Positions 16,075-16,572 of a DNA stretch of 64,000 nucleotides are shown here, in pieces. Both the position numbers and the translations under genes were made by a program. Below the pieces are notes generated by a model, which saw only the letters and a program-made list of their open reading frames with translations, was not told the DNA's origin and ran no database searches. The stretch's first letter is position 1. Each line of letters begins with the position of its first letter. Origin of the DNA: Escherichia phage Turkey5; sequence record PQ471516.1; one strand, written 5' to 3'.

Positions 16075-16572
16075 ATGACTACTGTTTATATTGATAAGCG
16101 TTTAGGCGTATTAATGACTGATTCAAGGGTGACTAGTACTCGCCCACGAAGTTTTTTGGGTATCTTCCCATTAAAAGAAAAAACCCACTACGGTGTTGTT
16201 TCACAGAAAACCTTGTATGTTCATGACCGTCTCTTCAGTGCAGCAGGATCAGTTTCTGAAATTGATAAAGTACTGAATTATTTAATTACTGGTGAAAAGC
16301 TAATTCCTTCCAAAAAGCTATCGTGCCATTGTGTGTTGTTATCTAAGGACTATTGTATTCATTTTGTCCTAGTAGACGGTAAGTTCGTTAAGAAGTTAGT
16401 TTTTCTACACAAGGACTACACGTTTTTTATGGGTAGTGGTGGTGAATATATGATTGACGCAGCTTGTCATGAGGACTATAGTACTCTCCAAGCTAAAGTA
16501 CTGGATACTTTTATGAAAGTAAAAAATCATGATTGTTTCAGTGATGATAATATTAATGTATATCGTTTTTGA
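16075..16572 (+). CDS. HslV/proteasome-beta-like Ntn-hydrolase peptidase (tentative)
   Basis: N-terminus MTTV (Thr after Met) plus AAGSVSEIDKVL and FFMGSGGEYMIDAA resemble HslV GFAGGTADAF and IAIGSGGPYAQAAA; similarity judged by eye. Confidence 0.4.
   Translation: MTTVYIDKRLGVLMTDSRVTSTRPRSFLGIFPLKEKTHYGVVSQKTLYVHDRLFSAAGSVSEIDKVLNYLITGEKLIPSKKLSCHCVLLSKDYCIHFVLVDGKFVKKLVFLHKDYTFFMGSGGEYMIDAACHEDYSTLQAKVLDTFMKVKNHDCFSDDNINVYRF

Follow-up and report, generated by a model that had tools for sequence, protein, structure and literature searches.

Escherichia phage Turkey5 (sequence record PQ471516.1) was found to encode, within a 64,000-nucleotide stretch that was analyzed as a whole (the window), a 165-residue protein that is probably a propeptide-less, highly divergent threonine hydrolase of the proteasome-beta/HslV type. 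As judged from its sequence, the protein is most likely an active peptidase, which would probably not operate in the manner of classical HslVU. Homology to the proteasome and HslV, and the fold that goes with it, are almost certain, and catalytic competence is likely.

The open reading frame (ORF) starts with ATG and comprises 165 codons, with MTTVYIDKRLGVLMTDSRVTS as its first residues (N-terminus MTTVYIDK). A reading of the DNA alone (the original prediction) had proposed a possible HslV/proteasome-like peptidase at 16075-16572, and had quoted its MTTV start and its GSGG-Y and AAG-S..D motifs. All of these are present in the sequence, with GSGGEY at residues 120-125, and AAGSVSEID at residues 56-64. 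An open frame of 165 codons is expected by chance about 0.05 times per 64 kb (our estimate, for six frames at 35% G+C), and full-length homologs exist in other phages, so that the ORF is not a chance frame but a real, conserved gene. Two minus-strand ORFs that overlap it (16405..16581 and 16581..16817) are mechanical only. The stop codon of the upstream ORF (16071-16073) is separated from the HslV-like ATG by 1 base, and translational coupling of the two genes is likely, because the Shine-Dalgarno sequence falls inside the end of the upstream ORF.

16075..16572, + strand: coding sequence of the HslV-like protein, 165 residues; divergent member of the proteasome-beta/HslV superfamily (T1, N-terminal nucleophile (Ntn) hydrolase); phrog_24804
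16065..16070, + strand: Shine-Dalgarno sequence AAGGTG, 4 nt 5′ of the HslV-like ATG

Homology and predicted fold

The protein matches the phrog_1040 profile, "peptidase HslV family", over residues 1-164 (E=1.7e-7), and the same profile is matched by 18 of 28 relatives, with a best E of 7.8e-18. Its own PHROG, which it matches end to end (E=1.9e-84), is phrog_24804, a family of unknown function. Alignment of the 28-sequence family with five genuine HslVs, using hhalign, covered the full length of the protein (residues 1-165 against 1-172) with 90.3% probability and E=1.5e-6. This full-length alignment required the deeper family alignment together with a small HslV alignment; comparison of a shallow profile with a single HslV aligned the GSGG region alone, at 16.5% probability. 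The phrog_1040 match and the full-length hhalign result bear out the HslV-like identity that had been put forward.

Structure prediction, which the original prediction had named as a check, gave a concordant answer. The AlphaFold2 (AF2) model has a predicted local distance difference test score (pLDDT) of 87.3 and a predicted template modeling score (pTM) of 0.77, and its best match in a Foldseek search of the PDB is T. brucei HslV (E=8.5e-6), followed by connectase and proteasome beta subunits. The predicted arrangement is the four-layer alpha-beta-beta-alpha Ntn fold of the proteasome type. BFVD contains 17 or more phage proteins that share a proteasome/HslV-like fold.

In the N-terminal half of the AF2 model, strands 4-7 and 12-16 are followed by a long hairpin (18-27 and 31-41), and by strands 46-49 and 52-58. 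Beyond residue 58, the model contains a single helix (60-72), a strand (84-89), helices 123-130 and 135-152, and the last strand. Compared with HslV, the protein appears to have lost H2, the outer helix that comes second, with one modeled helix where HslV has H1 and H2, and the hairpin after Asp16 is predicted to be longer by about 10-12 residues. The gaps in the hhalign alignment coincide with the H2 site and with the extended hairpin.

Active site, proposed mechanism, and rival readings

Conservation was read from 28 family sequences, with identity down to 20%. The only invariant positions are M1, T2, T3, G58, G120, S121, G122, and D153. Conservation reaches 90% or more at T15, D16, T20, and K45, and position 156, three residues after D153, reads as Ser or Thr in nearly all members of the alignment. 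The family shares its N-terminus, M-T-T-(V/I), with E. coli HslV. In a MAFFT alignment with that protein, T2 is placed on Thr1, D16 on Asp17, K45 on Lys33, and GSG on GSGG, and hhalign concurs on the Thr, the Asp, and the GSG. The spacing between K45 and G58 is 13 residues, compared with 12 between Lys33 and Gly45 of HslV, and 14 between Lys33 and Gly47 of the proteasome. By sequence, the equivalents of Thr1, Asp17, Lys33, Gly47, and Ser129 thus appear to be conserved. The conservation check that had been suggested for the catalytic Thr, Asp, and Lys gave a favorable result: across the family, little or no variation is seen at the positions that correspond to Thr1, Asp17, Lys33, GSG, and Asp166. 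The codons concerned are as follows.

16078..16080, + strand: Thr2, predicted N-terminal nucleophile (Thr1 after removal of Met); M-T-T invariant in 28 of 28 sequences
16120..16122, + strand: Asp16, equivalent to Asp17 of HslV/proteasome; placed on the HslV GDG by both MAFFT and hhalign
16207..16209, + strand: Lys45, putative Lys33 equivalent; on HslV Lys33 by MAFFT, two residues off by hhalign
16246..16248, + strand: Gly58, putative oxyanion-hole glycine, proposed from its spacing; invariant
16432..16440, + strand: Gly120-Ser121-Gly122, equivalent to HslV GSGG and the proteasome Ser129 motif; invariant
16531..16542, + strand: Asp153 to Ser156, with the D-x-x-S spacing of proteasome Asp166/Ser169, to which they probably correspond

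Methionine aminopeptidase accepts threonine as the residue after Met, and Thr could therefore be exposed as residue 1 without autoprocessing; the host enzyme would remove Met1, as happens in E. coli HslV, leaving Thr2 as the free N-terminal nucleophile. Asp16 and Lys45 would complete the triad, and Gly58 would form the oxyanion hole. The G120-S121-G122 and D153..S156 motifs are expected to keep the active site in shape, with Ser121 possibly a part of the site. A complete active site of the proteasome type would make an active threonine peptidase the most likely outcome. The protein might be produced early, from a promoter of the host sigma-70 type, on one transcript with a phage sigma factor (see below). 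The classical HslVU mode seems unlikely, since the protein lacks H2 and has an enlarged hairpin at the cleft, and since no gene for a cognate unfoldase was detected. Instead, the protein probably acts as a stand-alone oligomer that cleaves peptides, unstructured proteins, or specific proteins, or as a processing enzyme; alternatively, it may borrow an AAA+ partner, either host HslU or a phage ClpA-like ATPase. Any particular partner or substrate is doubtful.

Several observations weigh against the threonine peptidase assignment. The protein is only 15-18% identical to HslV. The Pfam scan gave no match, PF00227 included, and no NCBIfam family was matched, HslV models included. Searches of the PDB returned spurious matches only, to miRFP proteins with phmmer (E=0.6-1.2), and over 35 residues with hmmsearch and a 17-sequence profile (E=0.043). 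The original prediction had looked to a profile hit, PF00227 in particular; that Pfam match did not materialize, whereas the PHROG HslV profile and the profile-profile alignment did match. Among the relatives, four of 28 match PF00227 weakly (best E=0.0013, 18.9 bits against a gathering cut-off of 22.4 bits), and the failure of the model is attributed to divergence, which makes it no argument against a proteasome fold. In addition, MAFFT and hhalign differ by two residues on the position of Lys33. The loss of H2 and the long hairpin, as modeled, might hinder ring formation, and connectase is a ligase, not a protease, despite having the same fold and triad. As for early expression, it is deduced from gene position, and the promoter-like sites in the window are not enriched over shuffles.

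No AAA+ gene was found in any of about 12 gene neighborhoods examined (Asteriusvirus, RaK2, Munch, Hallingskeid, 05F01, three Vibrio phages, and four metagenomic contigs). A phage-encoded HslU was sought by tblastn with E. coli HslU, in the window and about 93% of the genome of the related phage fEgEco12, the remainder of which (about 314-340 kb) is the counterpart of a section of the window. The only match, at BLAST sensitivity, was to the P-loop region of the ClpA-like g327 (E=9e-4), and the candidate was rejected. This gene (L020:21077-23365) encodes a 762-residue double AAA+ protein of the ClpA/ClpB type (Pfam AAA, AAA_lid_9, AAA_2, and ClpB_D2-small), and a 442-residue "ATPase", g308, gave weak generic AAA matches only. 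The fEgEco12 genome further encodes a ClpP homolog, g207 (L018:31543-32238; PF00574, E=1.3e-41), another protein that resembles ClpP more weakly, g214 (L018:35170-35778), and a ClpS-like "protease adapter", g414 (L022:6795-7340).

Within the ClpP cluster lies a second proteasome homolog, the 197-residue, PPH-type g216 (L018:36128-36721, which is PP777464.1 85128-85721), which starts with MTC and has the motifs MTCIIAH..., IAGDKLGS, and VGSGTYHA, and a match to phrog_1040 (E=2.6e-22). Its ortholog in phage JNE01 (OR670491.1 34081-34680) lies outside the window. Proteins of the g216 type were found in 197 phage records, T5-like phages among them, and many are annotated as "peptidase HslV family". 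No BLAST similarity was detected between g216 and the HslV-like protein, and the phage lineage therefore carries two different proteasome homologs. A Salmonella jumbo phage with two HslV genes and no HslU was reported earlier (PMC7823757).

One rival explanation is that the protein is a functional HslV orthologue, a double hexameric ring that docks onto host HslU, or replaces host HslV, in an ATP-dependent hybrid HslVU. The M-T-T N-terminus, the GSGG motif, the similar length, and the best structural match to HslV are all in line with such a role; the E. coli host encodes HslU, and two GenBank records name the gene "ATP-dependent protease subunit HslV". However, both labels come without supporting discussion, and the fEgEco12 genome paper mentions neither HslV nor a protease. 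The low identity to HslV, the failure of the curated HslV and proteasome models, the absence of H2, and the enlarged hairpin also speak against orthology, as does the absence of HslU from the phage gene neighborhoods examined. When the phage collection was searched by tblastn with E. coli HslV, only host-derived contigs were returned. The genuine HslV/HslU sequences filed there derive from host DNA present as contamination, or from phages of other groups; the contaminant records (OR845448, OR851086, OR844988, OR849164, and others) are short "UNVERIFIED_ORG" contigs, together with a longer one of 386 kb, or bacterial genome contigs filed as phage. Orthology in the functional sense is decidedly unlikely. 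It is also exceedingly improbable that catalysis is irrelevant, and that the protein is a scaffold, or a mimic or decoy that titrates host HslU/HslV or some other partner. Mimicry of host proteins is common among phages, but the sole invariant positions in 28 very divergent sequences are catalytic or active-site-shaping residues, the pattern that is expected from selection for catalysis rather than for a binding surface.

The active site might also be put to a use other than bulk proteolysis, namely sequence-specific processing, or a connectase-like transpeptidase or ligase reaction, on one or a few targets, for instance a transcription protein of the host, or the sigma factor with which it is co-transcribed. 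The enlarged hairpin by the active site could provide specificity, no unfoldase partner is apparent, and the linkage to the sigma factor gene is retained down to 31% identity. Nevertheless, the phage protein retains H1 and does not show the signature of connectase, in which both H1 and H2 are lost and two helices are inserted between strands 3 and 4 (PMC8665760), and relatives outside the RaK2-like phages have no sigma gene nearby. On balance, this use is unlikely. A more specific proposal, that of an early, unfoldase-independent threonine protease functionally coupled to the co-transcribed sigma factor, and cutting a specific transcription protein, is very unlikely, and the one observation behind it is the same linkage. 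Candidate targets would be host sigma-70 or RpoS, a factor associated with RNA polymerase (an anti-sigma, for example), or the phage sigma factor itself, at its acidic N-terminal extension. If true, such a protease would help to pass host RNA polymerase to the phage program, and would be the first function for any viral proteasome homolog.

Genomic setting and distribution

The HslV-like gene is the second-to-last in a tightly packed run of plus-strand ORFs. The original prediction had placed it next to a sigma factor gene, and this neighbor was recovered 21 nt downstream, with sigma-70 regions 2 and 3 identified by Pfam.

15654..16073, + strand: upstream ORF, 139 residues, phrog_37211, unknown function; likely translationally coupled to the HslV-like gene
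16594..17556, + strand: sigma-70-family factor gene, 21 nt 3′ of the HslV-like stop; Pfam regions 2 and 3
17561..17586, + strand: strong intrinsic-terminator-like hairpin immediately 3′ of the sigma gene, with an 11-bp stem and then a T run
13647..13675, + strand: candidate sigma-70-type promoter, TTGACA-17-TATACT (11/12), heading the ORF run that ends with the HslV-like and sigma genes
18432..18460, + strand: perfect promoter sequence, TTGACA-17-TATAAT, about 850 bp beyond the terminator

The sigma factor is RpoD/RpoS-like by NCBIfam, with scores under the curated cut-offs. It apparently starts with TTG behind an AGGAG site, and carries an acidic N-terminal extension of about 75 residues that has no Pfam match. 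Elsewhere, the fEgEco12 genome encodes another "putative sigma factor" (g336), which is gp55-like and matches nothing in Pfam. The hairpin at 17561..17586 is the probable end of the transcription unit, and no sizeable ORF is obvious between it and the perfect promoter sequence (17.6-18.4 kb). In the RaK2-like phage CBB, the region with this sigma factor was proposed to be an early, host-takeover region (PMC5259590).

The HslV-like and sigma genes are adjacent in Asteriusvirus, RaK2, and Munch; two small ORFs intervene in Hallingskeid, and three ORFs in a metagenomic relative. The linkage thus persists down to 31% protein identity within the RaK2-like phages. No sigma gene was found near the HslV-like gene in 05F01, the Vibrio phages, or the other contigs examined, and since these relatives outside the RaK2-like phages are without it, the linkage may reflect inherited gene order only. 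The upstream ORF was considered as a conserved partner and rejected, being limited to 35 Asteriusvirus-type records and dissimilar to the upstream gene in Munch. In Vibrio phages vB_CoeS_P1 and helene 12B3, as well as in one metagenomic contig, coding switches strand immediately before the HslV-like gene, with an intergenic stretch of about 150 bp, which suggests that this gene heads a divergently transcribed, possibly early, operon in that branch. A virion role found no support: the phAPEC6 ortholog (gp067c) is absent from the available part of the text of the phAPEC6 paper, including its virion mass-spectrometry table. PADLOC identified no defense-system match for the HslV-like protein or the six ORFs upstream.

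Across positions 15000-18000 of the window, nucleotide identity is 98.6% with Escherichia phage vB_EcoM_JNE01, and about 84% with fEgEco12, with phages of the 121Q/PBECO4 type, and with their relatives. The carrier is an Asteriusvirus-type (121Q/PBECO4/RaK2-like) jumbo coliphage, of a group with genomes of about 350 kb. Full-length homologs of the HslV-like protein were identified by tblastn in 52 phage records, at 98-30% identity: 67-98% in Asteriusvirus-type coliphages and Salmonella phages, about 50% in RaK2-type Klebsiella phages, 45% in Erwinia phage Hallingskeid, and 31% in both the Salmonella phage Munch group and the 147-kb Klebsiella phage 05F01. The gene is annotated as hypothetical, or not at all, in 50 of these records, and as HslV or ATP-dependent protease in the other two (fEgEco12 and Turkey3). 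Family members range from 165 to 183 residues. When 1.84 billion representative proteins were scanned exhaustively with HMMER, only 17 clusters of the family were recovered, which indicates that it is small and essentially restricted to phages; the subfamily occurs mostly in RaK2-like jumbo phages. In Escherichia phage CMSTMSU (MH494197.1, 185609-185996), the ortholog lies in two pieces with 76% coverage, annotated as two hypothetical proteins, and is possibly a frameshifted or disrupted copy, or the product of a sequencing error.

Elsewhere in the window, positions 42724-58420 of the minus strand hold an array of about a dozen consecutive paralogous ORFs of 370-450 residues. The three that were scanned contain RCC1-like repeat (beta-propeller) domains (PF25390 and PF00415), and their orthologs in fEgEco12 are annotated as chromosome condensation regulators.

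Significance and comparison with known systems

The original prediction had held that a phage-encoded proteasome-like protease would be unusual. That view was not sustained, as proteasome homologs are present in hundreds of phage records, were described for phages in a 2021 survey by Fuchs et al. (PMC8665760), and are already labeled HslV in two GenBank records for this gene. Its further suggestion, an action on regulators of the host or the phage, is conjecture. The assignment agrees with those labels and with the survey, and is modest as a discovery; greater interest would follow only if the conserved sigma linkage proves to be functional. A literature search for phage HslV/proteasome homologs found genome-annotation mentions and the 2021 survey only, and no functional study. 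In the present analysis, proteasome-fold enzymes from hundreds of phage genomes fell into three or more groups that differ in sequence, two of them in this lineage, whose proteolysis set comprises the HslV-like protein, a PPH-type paralog (PPH, phage proteasome homolog), ClpP, a ClpA-like ATPase, and a ClpS-like adaptor. The HslV-like subfamily is small, has a strictly conserved active site, belongs to a cultivable group of E. coli phages, and is likely encoded in an early operon with a sigma factor. It is therefore a practical system in which to ask why the genomes of large phages include proteolysis genes of their own.

Among cellular enzymes, HslV (ClpQ; MEROPS T1B) shares with the phage protein the M-T-T start, the absence of a propeptide beyond Met, the Thr1/Asp17/Lys33/GSGG pattern, and a similar size (176 residues, compared with 165 in the phage protein). 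The phage protein differs from HslV proper in its 15-18% identity, in lacking matches to the Pfam and NCBIfam models, the H1 and H2 pair (H2 being absent from the model), and an accompanying hslU gene, and in its longer hairpin; its gene sits in an early-type run beside a sigma factor gene. BPH and Anbu, two other orphan proteasome homologs from bacteria, both retain H1 and H2, have signature loops or C-terminal helices of their own, and are cellular rather than viral (PMC8665760). Connectase, an archaeal protein ligase and a high-ranking structural match, has the same fold and the N-terminal Thr triad, and demonstrates that such an active site is capable of specific transpeptidation. However, it lacks both H1 and H2, and carries a helical lid between strands 3 and 4 (PMC8665760), whereas the phage protein is predicted to keep H1 and to carry a beta-hairpin extension.

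Loss of H2 has been reported as a trait of the PPH and RPC groups (PMC8665760). Like the members of PPH, with which we tentatively equate phrog_1040, the HslV-like protein is phage-borne and small, has no propeptide, apparently lacks H2, and matches the phrog_1040 profile; sequences such as P0035 match both profiles and bridge the two families. It is assigned to a separate PHROG (phrog_24804), whose members have 165-183 residues, compared with about 140 in the compact PPH, and the extra length is accounted for by the extended hairpin (residues 18-41). The phage proteasome homologs (PPH, phrog_1040) are thus the nearest described kin of the Turkey5 protein, which represents a separate, longer, and very divergent subfamily.

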